64,000 nucleotides of DNA from contig JAOZFH010000018.1 of NCBI GenBank assembly GCA_027491415.1, forward strand, positions 16,856-80,855, in the 5' to 3' direction. This document shows positions 19,081 through 48,127 of this stretch, piece after piece. The DNA comes from Thermoproteota archaeon (lineage in GTDB: Archaea; Korarchaeota; Korarchaeia; Korarchaeales; Korarchaeaceae). A program made the position numbers and the translations under genes. The notes below the pieces were generated by a model, which ran no database searches, was not told the DNA's origin, and saw only the letters and a program-made list of their open reading frames with translations. The stretch's first letter is position 1; every line of letters starts with the position of its first letter.

Positions 19081-19836
19081 TTAAGGCGAGAGCGCTTCGA
19101 CCGCGGCCTTCGCGAGCGCCCTCCGAGACCTGTCTACCTTGCGCGATGAGAACCTCGCCCTCCAGACCCCCTCGAACAGCTCGTCGGTAATCGCTAGCCC
19201 GGCCGCCAGCCTGACCCCCCTGAACTCCGCCACCGCCATCAGGGCAGAGCACTCCATCTCAACCGCCAGGGCCCCGAGCAGAGAGTACCTTCGAACCTTT
19301 CCGACGGTCTCGCGAAACGGCGAGTCGGTGGTCCAGACCCCGCCCCTCAGCACCCTTACGCCCGACCCTCCGAGCGAGGATTCCAGGGCCTCGATCATCT
19401 CTGGGTCGGCGAGGGGGATCCTCTCAGGCGGCAGGTAGTGATAGCTCGTCCCCTCCTCCCTGATGGCCCACTCCGGCAGCACCACGTCCCCAATCCCAAC
19501 ATCGGGTGATATGGAGCCCGCCTCTCCCAGGACCAAGATCCTCTTCGCCCCACTTGCTGCCAGGACCTCCAGCAGCATTGCGGCCGCCGGCGCCCCGAAG
19601 TAGGCCAGCAGAAATGGGATGCCCTCGAAGTGGAACCTCTCCAAGCACCCGGCCGCCCGGCACCTCTCCGGGGTCGCCCCGAGGGTCTCGGCGGCGAGCC
19701 TAAAGATCCTGGGGGTCAGGGCGATGACGGCCGAACCTCCCCCCAGCCAGTCAACCCTCAGCTCGTATGGGTCTATTATAGGCTCGTCCCCCTCCGCCGG
19801 CAGGAAGTCGAGGACCGGCACACCCGTCGGATCCAA
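19081..19836 (-). CDS. Nucleoside phosphorylase (PNP/UDP family)
   Basis: GAPAA, GEAGSI, AIREEGTSYHY, WTTDSPFRET, VEMECSAL. Confidence 0.88.
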   Translation of the reverse strand: MDPTGVPVLDFLPAEGDEPIIDPYELRVDWLGGGSAVIALTPRIFRLAAETLGATPERCRAAGCLERFHFEGIPFLLAYFGAPAAAMLLEVLAASGAKRILVLGEAGSISPDVGIGDVVLPEWAIREEGTSYHYLPPERIPLADPEMIEALESSLGGSGVRVLRGGVWTTDSPFRETVGKVRRYSLLGALAVEMECSALMAVAEFRGVRLAAGLAITDELFEGVWRARFSSRKVDRSRRALAKAAVEALSP

Positions 19837-19864: not shown

Positions 19865-20761
19865 TCAGACGAGCCTTAGAATCTTGGCGAGGGCCGTCTT
19901 CAGGAGTCCCTTGAGGAACGCCCTGCCCATGTTAGAGACCGGGGCCGTAACCGTGGAGTACCTGGCGTCGTCGCTCAGCGTCACCGGCGCCCCCCTGACG
20001 AGCACCGCAGGGATTCCCTCGGACCCCTGCCCCATGAGGAGGGCGGCCGCTGCCGCGAGCTCGTCGGCCACGAGGTCCACGCCCCCGAACTTGGGCTTCC
20101 CATAGAGGTCCGGCTCTCCGAAAGACCTCCTCACGGGGTCGATTCCGGAGACACCCACGGCCCAGTCCACGGAGCCCATCCTGAACGGCGCGAAGTCCGT
20201 GTCCGAGATCACCACGCCGACCCTGGCCCCCGTCAGCTCCCTGATGCGCTCCGCTATCTCCCGGGCCTCGGCGTCTGGGTCGGGGGGAGGGAGCGCGGCC
20301 ACACCCTCCGGGCAGTTGGACCAGTCGATCCCTGCGTCCGTGATCACGACTCCGGCCACCTCGGCCAGTATCGTCCCCCCCTCCTCCTCGACCATAGCCC
20401 TCGCCGCCTCCGGGTCCGGGGAGAACTCCTCCGGGAAGCCGGTCCCCCTGCTTGCCTCCGAGAAGGGAAGTATCAGCACGATCCTCCCGACGCTCCTGAC
20501 GAGTTCCACGAGCCAGGCCGGCCTGCCCGCTATCCTGGCCAAGATCCTGGACTTGAGGGAAGGCTTCACGTCAGAGATCCGCACCAAGTGGCCCTTCGCC
20601 TTGGAGACCACCTTGCTGGCTACCACCAGCACGTCGCCGTCACTGAGCTCGATTCCCATGGAATCGATCGCGGAGAGGATCACACTCGGGAGATCGTCTC
20701 CCTGCCTGAGTTCCGGGAGCCTCAACCCAATTAACTCAATCCTCCCACCCGGATTAGACAT
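19865..20761 (-). CDS. CofE-family (F420-0:gamma-glutamyl ligase-like) protein, copy 1
   Basis: GDDL, DGDVLVVASKVVSK, AGIDWSN, VISDT, ADELAAAAALLMGQ..EGIP; ATG 20761 preceded by GGAGG. Confidence 0.85.
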   Translation of the reverse strand: MSNPGGRIELIGLRLPELRQGDDLPSVILSAIDSMGIELSDGDVLVVASKVVSKAKGHLVRISDVKPSLKSRILARIAGRPAWLVELVRSVGRIVLILPFSEASRGTGFPEEFSPDPEAARAMVEEEGGTILAEVAGVVITDAGIDWSNCPEGVAALPPPDPDAEAREIAERIRELTGARVGVVISDTDFAPFRMGSVDWAVGVSGIDPVRRSFGEPDLYGKPKFGGVDLVADELAAAAALLMGQGSEGIPAVLVRGAPVTLSDDARYSTVTAPVSNMGRAFLKGLLKTALAKILRLV

Positions 20762-20888
20762 GAAATATCCTCCCCCCTGATCAGACGCCAAGACTATTAG
20801 CTGGTTTGCCTTCTACATACAAGCGTTCGTGGTGTTCGGCTCTCACTATGAATGAACCTGACGAGTCGAAGGGGAGCGCGGGAGGAGG

Positions 20889-22307
20889 TTGAAAATGTCC
20901 CCGAGGTCTCACGCTCTTTCCGCCTCCAGCACAAACATACCAGAGATTGCGTCGCTTGTCTGGGTTATCTTGGCCACGATCGTGCTGCTGGAGAGCACGG
21001 GAGACTGGGTGCCGAAGCAGGTCGACCCACTGAGCTTGCTCGGCAGGGCCGTGGGGCTCCTGGCGGCTGGTATGGCCCTCATCATCCTGTATTTCATCGT
21101 GCTTCAGAGGCTGGAGGCCCTTCTCTGGAGGGACTGGAAGTACTTCACCTGGGGGCAGGCACTCCTGGCATACTTCCTGCTCATCGAACTCGTCGACTCG
21201 GCCTTCGTCCTCCCTGAGTACGTGCACGTGATGGAACTCCTCACGATCCTAATCTCGGTGGGGATATGCTCCTGGTCACTCACGTCGATAATGGCCAGGC
21301 TGGCCTCCCTATTGACCGCCAAGAGGGGGGTCCCCAGGGTTCGACCGACTTGGATATTCGCAGCGTGGCTAGCTGTGCTGATCTCAGTCACCGCGTGGTC
21401 GCTTCGATACGTCAGGCCGCTCCCACGGCCGAGGTATCTGGACCTTACCTTGGACATAGCGATCGCGGGCGTGCTCGCCGCGAACCTGTGGAGGCTCACC
21501 AAAGCCCTGGGGACGGTCACAGGGGCCGGCAGGTGGCTAGTCGAGGCCTCCATCACCTCGATGGCACTTGGCGCGGTGGCGGAACTCTACGTGATGTTCG
21601 AGGACCTGTTCCTCACCCCAAAGACGATGAACGTTTTCGGTTACACTCTCACGGGAGCCATCGCTCTTGGGGTGGCCATATCCGGGTTCGGCTACTATCT
21701 GCTGGGAACCACGCCATATAGGGAGCCCCCCAACACGGAGGGGGAGGGTGGACCGGAGATTGACTGGAGGGAGTTTGGCCTGGACGTCGGAGGAGAGGGC
21801 GAGGTTATTCTGATGGAGTTCGAGCCTCTAACATCTCCCTCGGAGATGATAGCTAGCCTAGTGTCGTGGCTTAGGGAGCTCGACATGAAGATCGTGGTGA
21901 TCGCTAGGCGGGGTATCCCTCTGAGGGAGGTGGCGTCGGAGTCTGACCTGACTATCCGGGTCAGCCCTGGCAGGATGGCCGCGCCTAAGGAGCTGTCTCC
22001 GGGCGAGCTGGAGGTGGGCCTGAGCCCATCCGTGATCCTGGGGATCGTGAGCAGGTTGATCACGCCCGAGAGGAGGATGTCGCTCGTGGTGGAGAACGTC
22101 AGCGATATGACCACTCTCATCGGGTTGGACGGGGCCTACCGCCTGATCAGGGCCCTCATAGACATGCTGATCCCGGAGAGGGCCGTGGTAGTGCTCGTAG
22201 TGAACCGAGGCGCCCACGGCGATCGGGAGATGAACCTGATGAGGGGTCTCGCCACTTGGATCATTAACGCCACGCGATACCCACCCGAGATCAGGAAGGT
22301 GGCCTGA
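20889..22307 (+). CDS. Multi-TM protein with C-terminal inactive KaiC/DUF835-like domain, copy 1
   Basis: About 8 hydrophobic helices then an alpha/beta domain (VILMEF...LVVENVSD...AHGDREMNLMRGLA) with no Walker A. Confidence 0.7.
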   Translation: MKMSPRSHALSASSTNIPEIASLVWVILATIVLLESTGDWVPKQVDPLSLLGRAVGLLAAGMALIILYFIVLQRLEALLWRDWKYFTWGQALLAYFLLIELVDSAFVLPEYVHVMELLTILISVGICSWSLTSIMARLASLLTAKRGVPRVRPTWIFAAWLAVLISVTAWSLRYVRPLPRPRYLDLTLDIAIAGVLAANLWRLTKALGTVTGAGRWLVEASITSMALGAVAELYVMFEDLFLTPKTMNVFGYTLTGAIALGVAISGFGYYLLGTTPYREPPNTEGEGGPEIDWREFGLDVGGEGEVILMEFEPLTSPSEMIASLVSWLRELDMKIVVIARRGIPLREVASESDLTIRVSPGRMAAPKELSPGELEVGLSPSVILGIVSRLITPERRMSLVVENVSDMTTLIGLDGAYRLIRALIDMLIPERAVVVLVVNRGAHGDREMNLMRGLATWIINATRYPPEIRKVA

Positions 22308-33038: not shown

Positions 33039-33242
33039 GGCACGTTCGTCTGTCAGATGCGTTGAGGGAAGCATCGGCCCCGTGGGACCACTTGGGTCCG
33101 CGAAATAGGCCCGTTTCGGCTGAAAGCTCAAACCTTCGGAGTGGAGTTATCTCGCTCGATGTAACGCGACCCCTACGAGGAAAGAGAAGGCGCTGAGGCC
33201 TTTTTCGAGCTCACAGATGACTTTTTACTTGACGCACGTGCC
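33039..33242 (+). ncRNA. Candidate structured RNA / leader (unclassified)
   Basis: Closing inverted repeat GGCACGTTCGTC / GACGCACGTGCC enclosing several hairpins, including a cUUCGg loop; no long ORF. Confidence 0.3.
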
Positions 33243-33279
33243 GCCGAACCCTGAAGAAGCTCTGTCGGGGTGGTCACGA

Positions 33280-34101
33280 TTGACGGCCAGCCCGACCGAT
33301 AGGCTGATGACGGGGATCGAACCCATCGACTACACCCTTGGCGGCCTGCCCCGCGGCTACAACGTCCTGATCCTAGGGAAGCCCGGAACGGGCAAGACCC
33401 TATTCAGCATCAAGATGGCGTATCACATGGCTTCTTCAGGCGAGAGGGTAGTCTTCGTCACTATCCCCACCCCAAAGAGCATGTTCGAGGCCCAAGTGGC
33501 CTCGATGGGCATCGACCTAGCCGAGCTGGAGAGGAGGGGGGTCCTCAAGCTCATCTCGCTGGCCGACCCGAGCAACCGGGTTGAGGGGGAGAGCCTCTTC
33601 GTCTCGATGCTAGGCACGATAGAGGAGCACGATCCTTCCGTCGTGATAGTGGACGACCCCTCCATCTTGGTCACTAGGGTGAGCGTGCCCTTCCTAGTGG
33701 GGACGATCTCAGGCGAGCTGGGCAGGGAGACAAAAGAGCTAGGGAGGCTTCTGGTGGCTGCCATGGACGAGGACATCCTCAGGATATACAGAGAGCACCA
33801 CGCGTTCCTGCTTAGCAGGGCAGACATCGTTTTGAGGCTGGAGAGCGAGAAGCGGGGCGGGAGGATGGTTAGGAGGATGGTCGTCGTGAAGTCCAGGGGT
33901 ATGGCCCCAACCGCCCACTGCGTCGACTTCGAGGTGGACCAGGCGGGGAGAATCCGCCTGGCTCACCCCAGCCGGCCCGGGTGCTCTGAGGGGGTGAGGA
34001 GGGGGCTCGAGTGGGAGAGGAGATCCCCCAGGGCGTCCCAGGGGAGGGTCAGAGGGGTCGGCGCTGAGGACCTGGCGCCCGGGGCCGACCAGATGGCGTG
34101 A
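33280..34101 (+). CDS. KaiC-like/RAD55 RecA-superfamily ATPase
   Basis: LMTGIEPID..LGGLP, GKPGTGKT, VIVDD, ADIVLRL, VVKSRG; TTG at 33280 with GGGGTGG SD. Confidence 0.88.
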   Translation: MTASPTDRLMTGIEPIDYTLGGLPRGYNVLILGKPGTGKTLFSIKMAYHMASSGERVVFVTIPTPKSMFEAQVASMGIDLAELERRGVLKLISLADPSNRVEGESLFVSMLGTIEEHDPSVVIVDDPSILVTRVSVPFLVGTISGELGRETKELGRLLVAAMDEDILRIYREHHAFLLSRADIVLRLESEKRGGRMVRRMVVVKSRGMAPTAHCVDFEVDQAGRIRLAHPSRPGCSEGVRRGLEWERRSPRASQGRVRGVGAEDLAPGADQMA

Positions 34102-34146: not shown

Positions 34147-34974
34147 TTGAGGGTCTACGTGTCGGCGGACCTCGAGGGAGTGTGGGGAGTCGTCCACGGA
34201 GAGCACACCTTTAGGGATGGGAGGGAGCACGACAGGGCCAGGAGGTGGATGACTGAAGAGGTGAACGCGGCCGTCGAGGGTGCGATCAGGGCTGGGGCGG
34301 AGGAGGTCATGGTGAACGACTCGCACGGGACCATGAGGAACGTTATCCCGGAGGAGCTTCACCCCGAGGCCTCGCTCATCACCGGGTCGCCCAAGCCCAT
34401 GGGCGTGCTGGAGGGGCTGACCGCCGAGTTCGACTGCGCATTCTTCCTAGGCTACCAGCCATGGCCGGGGAGAGGGGCGTGCTGAGCCACACCTACAGCG
34501 GGAGGACCGTCAGGCGCGTGGCGGTGGGCGGGAGAGAAGTGGGCGAGTTCGGGCTCAACGCGATGGTCGCCCACCACCTGGGCGTGCCAGTGGTCCTGGT
34601 GACGGGGGACGACGCGCTCGCGGGGGAGGCGAGAGAGGCCGCGCCGGAGGCGGTAGCAGTGGCGACGAAGAGAGCGCTCGGCAGGTACGCCGCGATGTGC
34701 CCGCCTCGAAGGAGGGTGCTGGAGGAGATAGAGGAGGCCGCGTTCCAGGCAGCGAGGGGGGGTCGCGGAGGGGCGCGTCAGGGTCAGGCCCCCGGCTGGG
34801 CCGCTGGATGTCGAGGTCGAGTTCACGGATCCCGGGATGGCCGACGTCGCCCACCTGGTCCCGGGGTTGGTGAGAGTGAGTCCGACAACCCTGAGGTTTC
34901 GGGCGGAGGACGCGCTCGAGGCATACAGGGTCGTCAGGGCGTTCATGTACCTCGCCATCGCCGTGGCAAGGTAG
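34147..34974 (+). pseudogene. dppA: D-aminopeptidase DppA (M55), two frameshifts
   Basis: SADLEG, VNDSHG, GY-(-1 nt near 34458)-AMAGERGVLSHTY, VTGDD, then an extra G in the G7 run 34756-34762 before the VEVEFTD...EAYR C-terminus. Confidence 0.85.
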
Positions 34975-35054
34975 GCAGAAGGAGATCCTCGTGGGGGGTG
35001 GGGGCCCTCCCGCCGTTATAACTTGCCGAAGGCGCCCCACCCCCGGTGGTCTGA

Positions 35055-42777: not shown

Positions 42778-42916
42778 GGGGCCGTGGCCCAGCCAGGTGG
42801 CCTCCCGATGATAAGGCCGAGGTCGCCCTGGAAAGGTCAGGGCGGCGGGCTCCAGTCGGTGGAGCACTGAGGGGGAGACCCGTAGGACGTGGGTTCAAAT
42901 CCCACCGGCCCCACCA
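42778..42916 (+). tRNA. tRNA-Trp(CCA) with two introns (42795-42833 in D-loop; 42856-42877 at 37/38)
   Basis: Acceptor GGGGCCG/CGGCCCC-A-CCA, D stem GCCC/GGGC, anticodon stem GCGGG/CCCGT with CCA at 42852-42854, T arm GTGGG-TTCAAAT-CCCAC; BHB motifs at both introns; TTATATA at 42745. Confidence 0.92.
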
Positions 42917-43246: not shown

Positions 43247-44650
43247 CTAGGTCAGGTCGATTATGTTCGTGGCGAGGCTCCTCAGCAGGTTGACCAGCTT
43301 CGGGTCGTGGGCCTCCGGCGGCAGGACTATCACCACCACGGAATCGTGAGCGGCCAGCTGGTCGATCATCGCCCTGAGGAGCCTGTAGGTGCTCTCCCCA
43401 CCCAGGAGAACCAGCAGGCCGGTGGTGTCCTCGACGATCACAGCCAGCCTGTCTCCCTCCTCCCTGGCCCTGGATATCATCCCCAGGATTACGGCCGGAT
43501 CCGCCCCTATCTCGAACTCCCCCACCCCGACCTGCTTAGGCGGTCCCATCCTGCCGGCGGAGACGTAGAGAGCGAGCGAGGCGTGCTTGGCGATCTTGGG
43601 GGCCGCGGGGGATGACCTCCTCCCTATCAGCACGACCCTGTACCCCTCCGACTCCAGGTGGGAGGCCAGGTCCTCGAGCGCATCGGCGTAGCCCCTCATT
43701 GTGGAGACCTCGAACAGGATGACCCTCCCGGAGAACGTCCCCAGGCGGCTCCACTCGTCCGGACGCCTGGACCTGATTGGCCCCACCTCTGGCAGGCCCA
43801 AGGGCCGGGTAACTTCGGGGAGCGGAGGCCTGAGAGCCGTCGTGCCGTACAGGTAGTAGGCGACCAGCGCGAGCGCCAACCCCAGGGCCACGGCGGCGCT
43901 CCCGCTCACCCCGACGATTCTCACGACGTGGGGGATGATCAGCGTGTCGTCCAGCGTGGTGAAGACGCTGGCGGCGGCCCCCAGGTACAGCGCGCCGGAG
44001 CCGCACCTCAGCAGCCACCTGGCCGGGTAGCCGGACCTCCTCGACTCCAGCAGGAGCCTCGTGCCCAGGACGGCGTCGAACGCGAGGTTGATTATGTCGA
44101 ACGGGACCTCCCCCAGCTTGGGTTCGGGCATCGTCGGCCACTCCCACGGCCTCTGGGCGATAACCACTGCAGTCAGGAATGCGAGCCAGCCGACGAGCAC
44201 CAGCAGGGGGTCCACCCGCGGGGTCGCCCTCTTGGCCGTTAGCCCACTCGTTAGGTCGGTCAGGTAGCTCGCGAGGCTCCAGCCAGCCACGAGCGTTGCC
44301 AGCACCGTGCACCCGAGCTTGTAGAAGTGCACGATGGGCGGAACCTCGAAGACCGTCTCTACTACGTCCAGCCAGCCGAACATCACCATCACGCTCAGGC
44401 CCGCCAGGACTCCCCTCCAGTGCCCCGACAGGAGCGCCTCGACCTTCGACTTCCAGGCCGTGTAGAGGAGCGAAGTGAAGGCCATTGCCCCTAGGAGGCC
44501 GATAAACCTCAGGAGGAACTCAGCCTGGGTGAGGGGGCGGAGGCTCCACTGGCGAGATGTGGCGGCGACGACGATGGCCCCTAAGGCGATCCAGATGGCA
44601 GCGAGGGCCTCCTGAACTGAGAGCCGCAGGCCCCTACCCTCCTCGTTCAA
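43247..44650 (-). CDS. Multi-TM protein with C-terminal inactive KaiC/DUF835-like domain, copy 2
   Basis: Full-length paralog of 20889-22307 (LTAKR..PRV.P, YYL.GTT, VS.GRM..PK, YRL.RA.ID.L, AH...NL.R.LAT.II). Confidence 0.75.
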   Translation of the reverse strand: MNEEGRGLRLSVQEALAAIWIALGAIVVAATSRQWSLRPLTQAEFLLRFIGLLGAMAFTSLLYTAWKSKVEALLSGHWRGVLAGLSVMVMFGWLDVVETVFEVPPIVHFYKLGCTVLATLVAGWSLASYLTDLTSGLTAKRATPRVDPLLVLVGWLAFLTAVVIAQRPWEWPTMPEPKLGEVPFDIINLAFDAVLGTRLLLESRRSGYPARWLLRCGSGALYLGAAASVFTTLDDTLIIPHVVRIVGVSGSAAVALGLALALVAYYLYGTTALRPPLPEVTRPLGLPEVGPIRSRRPDEWSRLGTFSGRVILFEVSTMRGYADALEDLASHLESEGYRVVLIGRRSSPAAPKIAKHASLALYVSAGRMGPPKQVGVGEFEIGADPAVILGMISRAREEGDRLAVIVEDTTGLLVLLGGESTYRLLRAMIDQLAAHDSVVVIVLPPEAHDPKLVNLLRSLATNIIDLT

Positions 44651-44813
44651 CGCCTAAACACCCGTCTACGGTTTCTTCGTGGGCACCCGAGGCCCCCCCA
44701 TAAAAGTGATAGGTCGGTTAGGCTTTCGAACCCGGCCGCCGCTACGTTCGCCCCTCCTGTCCGGAAAAAACGCCGCGGTCAGATTAAATTCCGAGCCGAG
44801 AGTGCGTCGCCTA

Positions 44814-45728
44814 ATGAGATCTCCCTCCAAGGAGGATTCTCACCCCGCGGATGTCAGGATGATCGGGCTCAGGCTCCCTCGGGTTTTGGAGGGAGATGAC
44901 CTGGCCGGGCTCATCGTCCAGGCCGCAGGTGAGGTTGGAGAGAGGCTCGAGGACGGAGACGTGCTCGTGGTGGCGAGCAAGGTGGTCTCTCGCGCCAAGG
45001 GATACGTCGTGAAGCCAGGGGAGGTCAAGCCGAGTATCAGGAGCAAGCTGTTGGCGTGGCTGACAGGCCGAGAGCCCTGGGAGGTCGAGCTGATCAGGGA
45101 GAGGGGAAGCCTCGCGTTCATCATGCCCTTCTCTAAGGCCACCAGGGGGACGGGCTTCCCGGAGAGGTTCGCGGTTGACCCGGAAGAAGCCAGGAAGATG
45201 GTGGAGTCCGCCGGGGATGTCATGCTCATGAGAGCCAGGGGGCTGACCCTCGTCGACGCTGGGATGGACTACTCCAACTGCCCCGAGGGCCACGTCTGCC
45301 TGCTGCCGACAGATCCGGATGAGGAGGCCCGAGAGATAGCCGACCGCATAAGGGAACTCACGGGCGCCAGGGTGGGGGTCGTGATCTCTGACACGGAGTT
45401 TCAGCCCATGAAGATCGGCTCCATCGACGTGGCGGTGGGGGTCGCCAACGTCTTTCCGATCCGCAGGAGGTTCGGGGCCAGAGACTACTTTGGAAGGCCG
45501 AAGTTCGGGGGAGACGACTCCGTGGCCGACGAGCTCGCGGCCGCGGCGGCCCTGCTCATGGGGCAGGCCGACGAGGGCATACCCGTCGTGCTGTTCAAGG
45601 GGTTAGATGTTGAGATGGACGAAGAGGCCAGCTCCGAGGATTGGATAGCCCCCAGCGGGAAGGTGACCCGGGTCATTATCGTAGGGGCCCTAAAGACGCT
45701 GATCGCAAAGCTCCTGAGGCTGGCTTAG
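44814..45728 (+). CDS. CofE-family protein, copy 2
   Basis: DGDVLVVASKVVS, AGMDYSNCPEG, VISDT, ADELAAAAALLMGQ; paralog of 19865-20761; ATG 44814 downstream of ATTAAA. Confidence 0.85.
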   Translation: MRSPSKEDSHPADVRMIGLRLPRVLEGDDLAGLIVQAAGEVGERLEDGDVLVVASKVVSRAKGYVVKPGEVKPSIRSKLLAWLTGREPWEVELIRERGSLAFIMPFSKATRGTGFPERFAVDPEEARKMVESAGDVMLMRARGLTLVDAGMDYSNCPEGHVCLLPTDPDEEAREIADRIRELTGARVGVVISDTEFQPMKIGSIDVAVGVANVFPIRRRFGARDYFGRPKFGGDDSVADELAAAAALLMGQADEGIPVVLFKGLDVEMDEEASSEDWIAPSGKVTRVIIVGALKTLIAKLLRLA

Positions 45729-45777: not shown

Positions 45778-46719
45778 ATGATGGCGACCGAGCGCTGCTT
45801 GTACTGCGAGAGACCCGGGGAGCACTTCGTCCCGAACCTCGGCGGCAGGGTCTGCACCGAGCACTTCCTGAGGTACTTCAGGAAGAGGGTGAGGAGGGTC
45901 CTCAGGAGGGTGGGCAGGGGCAAGAGGGTGCTCGTCGGCGTCTCCGGCGGGAAGGACTCTGTGGCAGCCCTCTACGCGCTTGCGGAGATGGCCGACGAGT
46001 TCTCCCTGGAGATAGGGGCCCTAATGATAGATGTGGGCGTGCCAGGCAACGAGGCGTGCGTCGAGGTGTTCGGGAGGGCGGTCTCGGAAGTCGGGGCCAG
46101 GAGGCACCTCGTCTCGCTGAGGGACGACCTCGGCATCAGGGTGCCGGACGACCCCTCATTCGCCTGCGTGGTCTGCGGGACCGTTACGAGGTACGTCCTT
46201 AACAGGGTGGCCCACGAGGCGGGCTACGACTACGTCGCGACGGGACACAACCTGGACGACATGGCCTACTTCGCCCTCAACAACATGATCACCCACAACA
46301 TCGCTTACCTTCGATCCCTCGACTCGGTCACGCCGCCCATCCCCGAGCTCAAGCTGGTCGGGAGGGTGAGGCCCCTCTTCTGGCTCAGCGACGCCGACGC
46401 CGAGACGTACGTGAGGATCATCGGAGCCCCGAGGTGCTCCACTAAGTGCCCACACGAGGGCCAGGACAAGCAGGCTCTCGTAAAGCCCCTCCTCAACGAC
46501 CTCCGCTCGCTCTGGCCCACCAGCATCGTGAACTTCGTCGACTCGATGAGGGAGCTGGCCAGAATGGCTGGCCTGCTGGGGGAGAAGATGGAGGGATTCA
46601 GAGAGTGCGTCAGGTGCGGCTACCCGAGCAGAACGGAGGTGTGCTCGTTCTGCAGGCTGGTAGAGAAGCTGGGGGGCAGGGTCCCGAGCAGGCTGGTCGG
46701 TGGCGAGTCAAGGGGTTAA
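45778..46719 (+). CDS. TtuA/Ncs6-like tRNA thiolase (PP-loop ATPase)
   Basis: SGGKDS, CVVC, TGHNLDD, RVRPL, terminal Zn fingers. Confidence 0.85.
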   Translation: MMATERCLYCERPGEHFVPNLGGRVCTEHFLRYFRKRVRRVLRRVGRGKRVLVGVSGGKDSVAALYALAEMADEFSLEIGALMIDVGVPGNEACVEVFGRAVSEVGARRHLVSLRDDLGIRVPDDPSFACVVCGTVTRYVLNRVAHEAGYDYVATGHNLDDMAYFALNNMITHNIAYLRSLDSVTPPIPELKLVGRVRPLFWLSDADAETYVRIIGAPRCSTKCPHEGQDKQALVKPLLNDLRSLWPTSIVNFVDSMRELARMAGLLGEKMEGFRECVRCGYPSRTEVCSFCRLVEKLGGRVPSRLVGGESRG

Positions 46720-46750
46720 TTTTATACCACCATCGGACGCGGGTCCGGAA

Positions 46751-47044
46751 ATGCGTGAGGTCGAGTGTCCCATCTGCGGGGCCAGGATCCCGGTTGGGTC
46801 CCCCGACTTTCAGGGCGAGGTGGAGTGCCCTGACTGCGGAGCGCGGCTCTTTGTCGTTATTGAAGGGGGCTCTGTTCGGCTGATTGAACTCCGGGAGGAG
46901 GAACTCGAGTTTGAGGAGGAAGAGCTCGAGCTTTCGGAACTTGAGGCCGAGGTAGAGGGACTGGAGCTTGAGGATGACCTTGAGCCGGAGGATGTCGACC
47001 TGGAGGACCTCGAGGAGCTGGATGAAGGGTTGGGGGGCTTCTGA
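46751..47044 (+). CDS. LysW-like zinc ribbon with long acidic tail
   Basis: ECPICG...ECPDCGARLFVV then about 50 aa E/D/L-rich tail ending GLGGF; TTTTATA upstream. Confidence 0.75.
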   Translation: MREVECPICGARIPVGSPDFQGEVECPDCGARLFVVIEGGSVRLIELREEELEFEEEELELSELEAEVEGLELEDDLEPEDVDLEDLEELDEGLGGF

Positions 47045-47059
47045 CCGGGTCGGAGTGGG

Positions 47060-48127
47060 GTGGTAACCCTGCCCTTGATCGAGGCGCCCGGGTCGATGAG
47101 GCTGGGCCTCAAGGTCCCCCCTGGGTGGTACGACCTCCACGTGCACACGAGGTGGTCGAGGGACTCCCCCTCAAGACCCGCGTCCATCGCGAAGTGGGCC
47201 AAGAGGAGGGGCCTCGCTGGCCTGGCCGTGACCGACCACGGAGAGACCCTTGGCTACAGGGAAGTGTGTAGGGCTGCCGAGAGGTTCGGACTCGCGGTGA
47301 TCCCCGGGGAGGAGATCAAGACTTCGAGGGGGGAGATCATCGGGCTCAACCTCTCGGACTGGGTTAGGCAGAACATGGATCCCCTCGAAACCGCCGACGA
47401 GATCGTGGAGCACGGAGGTCTCATCACCGTCCCGCACCCAGGGGACTGGACTAGAAAGAACGCCATGAGCGCGGCCACGGTTAGGGAGATATCCCACAAG
47501 ATACACGCCCTGGAGGCGTCCAACTCTAGATCCCCGATGGAGTCTAATAGGCGAGCTCAGAGGCTGGCCGCCGAGCTCGGCCTCCCCTGGACGGGCGGCA
47601 GCGACGGTCACCTGGCGCTTGAGGTTGGGAGGTCGGCGGTTCTGATCGGCGATGGCGGCCAGGTGGTGGCGCTCAAGATGCCCAGGATGAGCGGGGCCCT
47701 CCTCGCCCCGATATCCCACGCTGTGAAGCTCTTGAAGCACAGGCTGGCCAGACTGCCGGATTTCGTTCACGACGCGTCAAAGGCATTCCCCTCCGGCATT
47801 TCCGCCGCCGTAGCCACTCCGCCTGGGTGGGAAATCTGGCTCGTCTCCGGGGGCAGGGCCTTCATGGTCGGGGCCCACGGAGGCAAGACTCGCATCCTGA
47901 GAGAGGCCTCCTTAGATGAGTTAGAGGATCCAGTTGCGCTCTGGACCTCCGGCGCCCCTGGAGGCTGGAGGAAGTTGTCGCTGGTAGGCTGGCCAGGCGA
48001 CTCGGGACTTGCCGTCGTGGACTGCCACGAGTCTAAGGTGACGCACTTGGTGATCCGCAGGGGGTCGGAGGTCGTCCCGCTCCCGACCCGCGGCCTCCGA
48101 CTCGCTGAGTTCAAGCCGTCCGCTTGA
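47060..48127 (+). CDS. PHP-domain phosphoesterase with C-terminal extension
   Basis: DLHVHT, VTDH, PGEE, PHP, GGSDGH. Confidence 0.85.
   Translation: MVTLPLIEAPGSMRLGLKVPPGWYDLHVHTRWSRDSPSRPASIAKWAKRRGLAGLAVTDHGETLGYREVCRAAERFGLAVIPGEEIKTSRGEIIGLNLSDWVRQNMDPLETADEIVEHGGLITVPHPGDWTRKNAMSAATVREISHKIHALEASNSRSPMESNRRAQRLAAELGLPWTGGSDGHLALEVGRSAVLIGDGGQVVALKMPRMSGALLAPISHAVKLLKHRLARLPDFVHDASKAFPSGISAAVATPPGWEIWLVSGGRAFMVGAHGGKTRILREASLDELEDPVALWTSGAPGGWRKLSLVGWPGDSGLAVVDCHESKVTHLVIRRGSEVVPLPTRGLRLAEFKPSA

Follow-up and report, generated by a model that had tools for sequence, protein, structure and literature searches.

In a stretch of 64,000 nucleotides of contig JAOZFH010000018.1 from a Korarchaeial archaeon, here called the window, there are two head-to-head gene pairs, each of which joins a CofE-fold amide ligase (lig1 or lig2) to a membrane protein (A or B) with eight transmembrane (TM) helices and a RecA/KaiC-like domain that has no P-loop. 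The two ligases belong to a separate clade marked by an insertion, the ligase and membrane genes stay adjacent in related species in which the flanking genes vary, and both genes were duplicated long ago in parallel. It is plausible that each pair is a functional module, in which a peripheral-membrane ligase of CofE type has the 8-TM inactive-KaiC protein as its docking or regulatory partner, and we give this reading a probability of about 0.4. The parts themselves come from known superfamilies; no description appears to exist of the ligase clade, of the 8-TM domain type or of the conserved pairing of the two. A literature search for DUF835 with F420 found no pairing of a DUF835-type membrane protein with a CofE-type ligase, and the literature found on CofE in Korarchaeota was general F420 work only.

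Two divergent gene pairs and their conservation

The two pairs consist of the following features.

19865–20761, minus strand: lig1, insertion-type CofE-fold amide ligase, 298 aa from the ATG at 20761 (the open reading frame (ORF) reaches a TTG at 20791); PF01996, TIGR01916, AlphaFold2 (AF2) model
20354–20461, minus strand: lineage-specific insertion of lig1, residues 111–146 of P0001 (lig1), net ~29 aa beyond the CofE of A. fulgidus (AfCofE)
19874–19939, minus strand: C-terminal cationic amphipathic helix of lig1, model residues 275–296, from AF2 secondary structure
20762–20894, no strand: 133 nt between the divergent genes of pair 1, containing a TATA-like box kept in orthologues and a Shine-Dalgarno (SD)-like GGAGG ahead of the membrane gene, both judged by eye without statistics
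20895–22307, plus strand: membrane protein A, 470 aa from ATG, 8 predicted TM helices at ~20937–21710 and a P-loop-less RecA/KaiC-like domain at ~21801–22298
43247–44650, minus strand: membrane protein B, 467 aa, paralogue of A with identical architecture, 32% full-length identity and weak Pfam matches
44651–44813, no strand: divergent intergenic region of pair 2, 163 nt, from upstream sequence comparison
44814–45728, plus strand: lig2, second insertion-type ligase, 304 aa from the ATG at 44814; PF01996, 57% identity to lig1, own clade (100/99)

Before correction of the starts, the listed ORFs were 308 aa (19865–20791, minus) and 472 aa (20889–22307, plus) for pair 1, and 467 aa (43247–44650, minus) and 349 aa (44679–45728, plus) for pair 2. 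The start codons of lig1 (ATG 20761), lig2 (ATG 44814) and membrane protein A (ATG 20895) were placed from orthologues and from TATA-like and SD-like sequence upstream, and the corrected starts give the divergent intergenic regions their lengths of 133 and 163 nt. No operator common to the two regions was seen by eye, no formal motif search having been made. The original prediction, a reading of the window by itself, held that the pair recurs at 43247–45728 in inverted orientation among unrelated genes, that both partners align along their whole length, and that the membrane proteins share six scattered motifs. The pair at 43247–45728 is a true second copy. It is inverted relative to pair 1 and the genes flanking the two pairs are unrelated; BLASTP aligned lig1 with lig2 at 166 identities in 290 positions (57%, E 1e-109) and membrane protein A with B along the full length at 148 identities in 463 (32%, E 1e-63), and all six motifs are present in the alignment of the membrane proteins.

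A search of 41 genomes with membrane protein A (P0002) gave full-length matches only in the genus of the source organism (g1), in 5 of 5 genomes including the source genome G000. The ligase and membrane genes are adjacent in all five species of the genus and in all four metagenome contigs that could be assessed, the other three of the seven contigs found ending at the head of the membrane gene. The flanking genes vary among the three arrangements seen, which are the divergent pairs 1 and 2 and a single ligase with a membrane gene on either side. The relatives carry them as follows.

G004: pairs 1 and 2 both retained
G002: pair 2 kept; membrane gene A beside an ABC ATPase gene, no lig1
G003 and G001: membrane A, ligase (divergent), membrane B (convergent), TtuA-like gene; a single lig1-type ligase
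L069 (metagenome): divergent pair
L071 and L073 (metagenome): a single ligase flanked by membrane genes on both sides
L074 (metagenome): pair-2-like

The G002 locus (L068, 5127–8905) keeps its synteny beyond the tail of membrane gene A (amidohydrolase, LarA-like), and on the head side it has ABC transporter genes instead of lig1 and the phosphorylase gene that follows lig1 in the window; the breakpoint falls within the divergent intergenic region. Membrane gene B of G001 (L020/L023) contains one in-frame TAG, and the pair-2-like membrane gene of L074 is split into two frames; these interruptions may reflect decay of copy B or sequencing error.

Adjacency was also found in a second genus, g4, where G007 has a ligase 51% identical to lig1 that lies convergent with the gene of a 468-aa membrane/KaiC-like protein, 8 nt apart. 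The ligase/membrane adjacency is the only neighbourhood common to g1 and g4, the other neighbours in G007 being different. A profile built from the genus alone matched the G007 membrane protein along its full length (403 columns, probability 97.4%), and four other paralogues were matched in the C-domain only.

In the phylogenetic tree the membrane proteins form an A clade (97/99) and a B clade (84/86). Since the lig1, lig2, membrane A and membrane B clades each span several species, both duplications predate the genus, with later loss of lig1 in G002 and of lig2 in G003 and G001. If the whole pair was duplicated in tandem beside the TtuA-like gene and copies were then lost or separated, all of the arrangements would be explained. 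The proposal that the duplication is old and that the linkage was kept is thus borne out by the adjacency in relatives and by the clade structure of both partners, and the comparison of partner phylogenies that went with it shows parallel duplications of ligase and membrane protein, both older than the species.

The ligases and their acceptors

Both ligases belong to the CofE/F420_ligase family (COG1478), with PF01996 scores of 197.5 bits (E 2.6e-58) for lig1 and 192.6 bits (E 8.5e-57) for lig2 against a cut-off of 25, and the source genome has four PF01996 genes. The lig1 sequence matches that of AfCofE with E 2e-44, and its AF2 model, with a predicted local distance difference test (pLDDT) score of 88.7, matches 2phn in Foldseek with E 9e-28, a TM-score of 0.84 and 38% identity. 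The TIGR01916 equivalog model is passed by lig1 with 197.8 and by lig2 with 204.1 bits against a cut-off of 180.65, in a match that the insertion splits into two stretches; NF009809 gives 173.5 and 174.2 bits, below its cut-off of 274, and NF009810 is likewise failed. Because the TIGR01916 cut-off is passed, annotation pipelines will probably mislabel both proteins as 'coenzyme F420-0:L-glutamate ligase'.

The insertion-type ligases form one clade (100/100), separate from the two other PF01996 paralogues of the genome, with lig1 and lig2 in their own subclades (94/99 and 100/99). A comparison of alignment columns between 10 insertion-type and 21 other sequences, the latter including one insertion-bearing sequence (L059, from G045) misfiled among them, determined that the insertion takes up 28 extra columns common to the ten sequences and features a DPE.A motif, and that the clade has N-to-D, R-to-F and T-to-G changes at columns conserved elsewhere. 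The residues invariant across 31 family members are present in lig1 (K60, D156, N159, D197 and D228 in P0001 numbering).

A two-stretch alignment of lig1 to 2phn/7uld, with AfCofE numbering checked by the match of G153-R-C155, reveals that the insertion starts right behind a Phe (F110) that is aligned with AfCofE F92. The available text of PMC10861534 gives F92, G153–C155 and R234 of the dimer partner as the contacts of the deazaflavin chromophore in AfCofE. The F92-equivalent Phe is kept in lig1 and lig2, AfCofE GRC153–155 is replaced by FAP in lig1 and FQP in lig2, and the R234 region is not alignable. The window ligases are thus like AfCofE (PDB 2PHN, 2G9I, 7ULD) in fold, invariant residues and the Phe, whereas they differ in the ~29-residue insertion, in FAP/FQP, in a Gln at the position of E208 and in a longer cationic C-terminal helix. 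The E208-to-Gln change was considered as a marker of the insertion clade and rejected, other Korarchaeial paralogues also having Q or K there. The C-terminal tails of the genus ligases contain 3–4 K/R and zero acidic residues per 18-mer with a hydrophobic moment (muH) of 0.34–0.49, and those of the other insertion-type ligases contain 3–7 K/R per 18-mer with muH up to 0.68. A membrane-associated ligase, as originally proposed, is plausible from this cationic amphipathic helix of the model.

The window ligases are set further apart from AfCofE by their genome, in which no other part of the F420 pathway was found. The source genome has 1.78 Mb and is 96.3% complete, and its family includes complete 1.6-Mb genomes. 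CofC, CofD, CofG, CofH and FrhB_C were not found in it by searches that matched in control genomes, CofD was found in 0 of 5 relatives, and FolC was not found in the source genome. A third CofE-family paralogue (contig C29, ~10.7–16 kb; L001/L077) sits in a pterin cluster with a folE2-type GTP cyclohydrolase, an MptE-like 6-hydroxymethylpterin diphosphokinase and a pterin-binding (DHPS-like) gene, and it is likely a FolC2-type pterin or folate glutamyl ligase. FolC2/CT611 (COG1478) of Chlamydia is, in the available text of PMC1971073 and PMC4161248, a CofE homologue that replaces FolC and complements an E. coli folC mutant; its organism is also described there as having no other cof genes, which makes it a precedent for a different acceptor.

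Taken together, the F420 genes not found and the C29 paralogue that mirrors FolC2/CT611 make it most likely that CofE-family enzymes of this lineage serve acceptors other than F420, and it is unlikely that the window ligases make F420. Of the CofE ligase in the original prediction, the fold therefore stands; its reading as an F420 ligase does not, as no F420 pathway was found and the clade is distinct and insertion-bearing. The window ligases are yet another type, distinct from the C29 paralogue. In contrast to that paralogue they lie outside any pterin/folate cluster, with genes of the PNP family, an amidohydrolase and a TtuA-like protein as neighbours, and their TIGR04132 scores of 70.6 (lig1) and 60.2 bits (lig2) against a cut-off of 350 place them outside the FolC2 type. 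In one genome of genus g5 (G011, L065, 3865–6103) an ORF of 129 aa and then a gene of the 5-formyltetrahydrofolate cyclo-ligase (5-FCL) family come after an insertion-type ligase. The legend of Fig. 5A in PMC1971073 describes clustering of folC2 with 5-FCL genes, and by this analogy the G011 neighbourhood hints at a pterin-type acceptor.

The membrane proteins

The AF2 model of membrane protein A (pLDDT 77) features 8 TM helices within residues 17–274 and an alpha/beta domain at residues 305–470, and its outer loops have 4–8 residues. Helices 4 and 5 are joined by a conserved basic loop, LTAKRGVPRVR, which is predicted to be cytoplasmic from the even-helix topology. Proteins that combine a membrane domain with an inactive KaiC domain are regarded as signalling parts. 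The C-domain of protein A matched 2ekd in Foldseek (4.9e-5) and also FlaH, KaiC and RecA, and the VIA matches with Z 12–14 were PH0250, Elp4/5/6, PH0284, FlaH and KaiC. The best structural matches are PH0250 (PDB 2EKD), FlaH/ArlH and the CI domain of KaiC, which belong to small archaeal proteins in the RecA superfamily, at 11–16% identity; VIA aligned model residues 289–472 with 2ekd at Z 14.0 and a root-mean-square deviation of 3.2 over 166 aligned residues, and FlaH gave Z 12.8. FlaH and KaiC bind ATP, whereas the C-domain here has no Walker A GK[ST] behind strand 1 in 10 of 10 aligned sequences, the segment after strand 1 being EPLTSPSE in A and STMRGYAD in B, and it therefore has an inactive RecA/KaiC fold.

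The Pfam matches of the membrane proteins are weak. DUF835 (PF05763) gives 17.2 bits against a cut-off of 33.1 for both proteins (E 4.4e-3 for A, 4.6e-3 for B), DUF7504 (PF24336) gives 27.2 bits against 27 (E 6e-6) for protein B only, at model positions 99–178 of 179, and relatives give an equally weak trio of DUF835, DUF7504 and DUF7090. The inactive RecA/KaiC-like C-domain of the original prediction is in agreement with the P-loop that is not there, with the structural matches and with these Pfam matches. Proteins with such domains are covered by the term 'iKaiC', used in Galperin et al. 2018 (PMC5847659, in the text available) citing Makarova et al. 2017. The window proteins are like the iKaiC membrane and sensor proteins of the DUF835, DUF7504 and DUF7090 families in fusing a Walker A-less RecA/KaiC-like C-domain to an N-terminal membrane domain, but their Pfam scores are below or barely at the cut-offs and their 8-TM domain type is narrowly distributed.

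A profile search through 1.84 billion representatives yielded 274 proteins with E<=1e-3, nearly all of them matched in the C-domain alone behind many different N-termini, and the ligase-linked full-length type was found in clusters from the genus and G007 only. At full length, the 8-TM domain type was found in paralogues of the type seen on contig C1 of the source genome and otherwise in no more than two Korarchaeial genera. The TM domain matched no transporter family in the family-model libraries, and residues 1–290 gave a best score of 0.84 and no named family in the ESM Atlas. Among the matches listed by the VIA wide search, all cover only residues ~286–472, save the stray 2zpa_B (141–465), and comparison of halves and quarters of the 8-TM domain by hhalign gave no internal repeat (probability <2%).

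The source genome holds further paralogues of the membrane proteins, of which the one on contig C1 also has the TM domain. At 50–3422 of C1 (L007) a same-strand row consists of a DHH/DHHA1 phosphoesterase (318 aa), the 8-TM/inactive-KaiC paralogue (490 aa) and a KaiC ATPase (241 aa), and the gene order is repeated in G004 (L024) and G002 (L025). The three-gene row is a candidate KaiC-hub signalling unit, with an active KaiC ATPase in the cluster. No active KaiC gene stands beside either pair of the window; the nearest, at 33217–34101, is ~11 kb off with unrelated genes between. The suggestion that this KaiC ATPase (33280) takes part in the system accordingly finds no support in the neighbourhood.

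Neighbouring genes and competing explanations

Two genes follow the ligases closely.

19081–19836, minus strand: PNP_UDP_1-family phosphorylase, 29 nt downstream of lig1; PF01048 5.4e-34
45778–46719, plus strand: TtuA/NcsA-like PP-loop protein with zinc fingers, 50 nt downstream of lig2; PF01171, NF049949 159.5 bits against a cut-off of 450

The phosphorylase gene is possibly co-transcribed with lig1, and it also follows lig1 in G004 and in the metagenome contig L069. The TtuA-like gene possibly belongs to one unit with lig2. It opens a row kept in the genus (45778–48127), in which the PP-loop protein, below all equivalog cut-offs, is followed by a LysW-like zinc ribbon of 114 aa, whose long acidic tail ends in GLGGF, and by a PHP-domain protein; the row could be a carrier-protein system that might have a relation to the ligase. 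Elsewhere in the window, a Peptidase_M55 (D-aminopeptidase) gene is present as two overlapping ORFs (34147–34485 and 34461–35021, profile positions 1–103 and 107–206), which is a frameshift, real or due to assembly error. Beside pair 2, 42778–42913 gives an Rfam tRNA match of 136 nt and 45.5 bits, presumably an intron-containing tRNA, and ARAGORN found no tRNA there.

The folds, the ligase clade, the F420 genes not found, the conserved adjacency and the parallel old duplications are observed; a physical or regulatory coupling of the two proteins, association of the ligase with the membrane, its catalytic activity and the kind of its substrate are what we infer. The pair would be a lineage-specific two-gene module of a Korarchaeia-type genus. 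Its ligase would be a nucleotide-dependent amide (gamma-glutamyl-type) ligase of a separate CofE-fold subfamily, with an acceptor side that may have been remodelled by the ~29-residue insertion after the F92-equivalent and by FAP/FQP in place of G153–C155. The cationic amphipathic C-terminal helix would hold the ligase at the inner membrane face, and the membrane protein, whose cytoplasmic RecA/KaiC-like domain is predicted not to bind nucleotide via a P-loop, would be its membrane partner, either as docking platform or as regulator. The inactive KaiC-like domain and the conserved basic loop LTAKR..PRV.P are candidate contact surfaces. The ligase would then tail a non-F420 carboxylate-bearing cofactor or metabolite at the membrane. 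A sensor-enzyme signalling system, as the original prediction had it, is one of several readings that would fit the sequences.

Several observations weigh against a module of this kind, and many of them favour a conserved adjacency without partnership, in which the membrane proteins would work in KaiC-type signalling and the ligase in cofactor- or tRNA-related metabolism, the genes being held together by inherited synteny or by a common bidirectional control region. This explanation is a real possibility that we nevertheless hold to be less than even. The ligase/membrane coupling is not obligatory. Membrane protein A persists in G002 (97% complete) after the breakpoint removed lig1, none of the three PF01996 matches of that genome being lig1-type, and G003 and G001 have one ligase per two membrane genes. 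The C1 paralogue, in its row of DHH/DHHA1 phosphoesterase, membrane protein and KaiC ATPase, has no ligase, so the membrane family can work without one. Conversely, insertion-type ligases were found in 10 of 40 genomes of the class (g1 5, g4 1, g3 2, g5 2) and in one Acidilobus metagenome-assembled genome (MAG), and no ORF of the membrane family flanks them within ~5 kb in G008 and ~4 kb in G011 (both g5), 0.8–2 kb in G041 (g3) and 6 kb in the Acidilobus MAG. A search of the whole of G008 (87% complete) and G011 (82%) with membrane protein A gave no match.

The neighbourhood of the ligase also points elsewhere. The g5 ligase is divergent from a TtuA-like PP-loop gene (~30% identity to the TtuA-like protein of the window), so that the ligase adjoins a TtuA-like gene (g1, g5) as often as a membrane gene (g1, g4). 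The row of TtuA-like, LysW-like and PHP genes always comes after lig2 or membrane gene B in those genus loci that reach that far, and together with the g5 neighbour this makes the tie of the ligase to the row as broad as its tie to the membrane gene. The linkage is limited to two related genera, for which reason inherited synteny is possible, and in the comparison with the G007 membrane protein the TM part adds little score (91 bits against 87–89 for the C-domain-only paralogues). A further point concerns the enzyme itself, as the residue aligned with AfCofE E208, which we take to be a metal ligand, is Gln in 10 of 10 insertion-type ligases, and the ligase activity may differ. What speaks against mere adjacency is that it outlived at least 3 rearrangements with changing flanks, that it is the sole neighbourhood common to g1 and g4, and that both genes have matching old duplications. 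Conserved linkage elsewhere was seen in the genus and in g4, but not beyond these two genera; the linkage is broken in G002, and in other genera and in the Acidilobus MAG the ligase type was found without this partner in the flanks covered.

Less probable is an import-and-trap system, which we regard as unlikely. Here the 8-TM domain would be a permease for an external cofactor or precursor, the membrane-held ligase would add glutamate(s) for its retention, as folates are retained by polyglutamylation, and the KaiC-like domain would gate the permease or dock the ligase. The outer loops of the model, at 4–8 residues, are too short for an extracellular sensor domain, the cationic amphipathic helix of the ligase would suit a membrane-held enzyme, and in the g5 genome described above the second gene from the ligase is that of a 5-formyl-THF cyclo-ligase. 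FolC2/CT611 is a proven non-F420 member of the CofE family (PMC1971073 and PMC4161248, in the text available). On the other hand, no transporter family matches the TM domain, the signalling role attributed to membrane proteins with inactive KaiC domains speaks against a permease, a CofE paralogue is already present in the pterin cluster of the genome, and TIGR04132 reaches only 60–71 bits against its cut-off of 350.

A more specific form of the functional module, which is doubtful, is that the inactivated-KaiC membrane protein acts directly on a metabolic enzyme, as controller or scaffold, with no active KaiC ATPase involved, and that the ligase glutamylates a non-F420 acceptor at the membrane, such as an imported cofactor or a protein carboxylate, for example the acidic tail of the LysW-like carrier two genes downstream. 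That lig1 and lig2 are ordinary CofE enzymes adding glutamates to F420-0 is very improbable, since the CofE fold, the TIGR01916 cut-off passed by both and the retained F92-equivalent Phe are set against the CofC, CofD, CofG, CofH and FrhB_C genes not found in a 96%-complete genome, CofD in 0 of 5 relatives, a TIGR01916 match split by the insertion, NF009809 scores of 173.5–174.2 against 274, and FAP/FQP at the chromophore-contacting G153–C155 (contact as given in the available text of PMC10861534).

The reach of the functional module would be two uncultured Korarchaeial genera. An organism, here a hot-spring archaeon, that has four CofE-family paralogues and in which no F420 pathway was found is a clear case for acceptors beyond F420, for which FolC2 is the precedent. 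Inactivated-KaiC membrane proteins are common in archaea and have no assigned outputs, and a conserved, twice-duplicated pairing with an enzyme offers them a concrete candidate partner open to testing. Should the membrane protein indeed control or scaffold the ligase directly, with no active KaiC ATPase, the inactivated-KaiC signalling architecture of archaea would gain its first assigned enzyme output.

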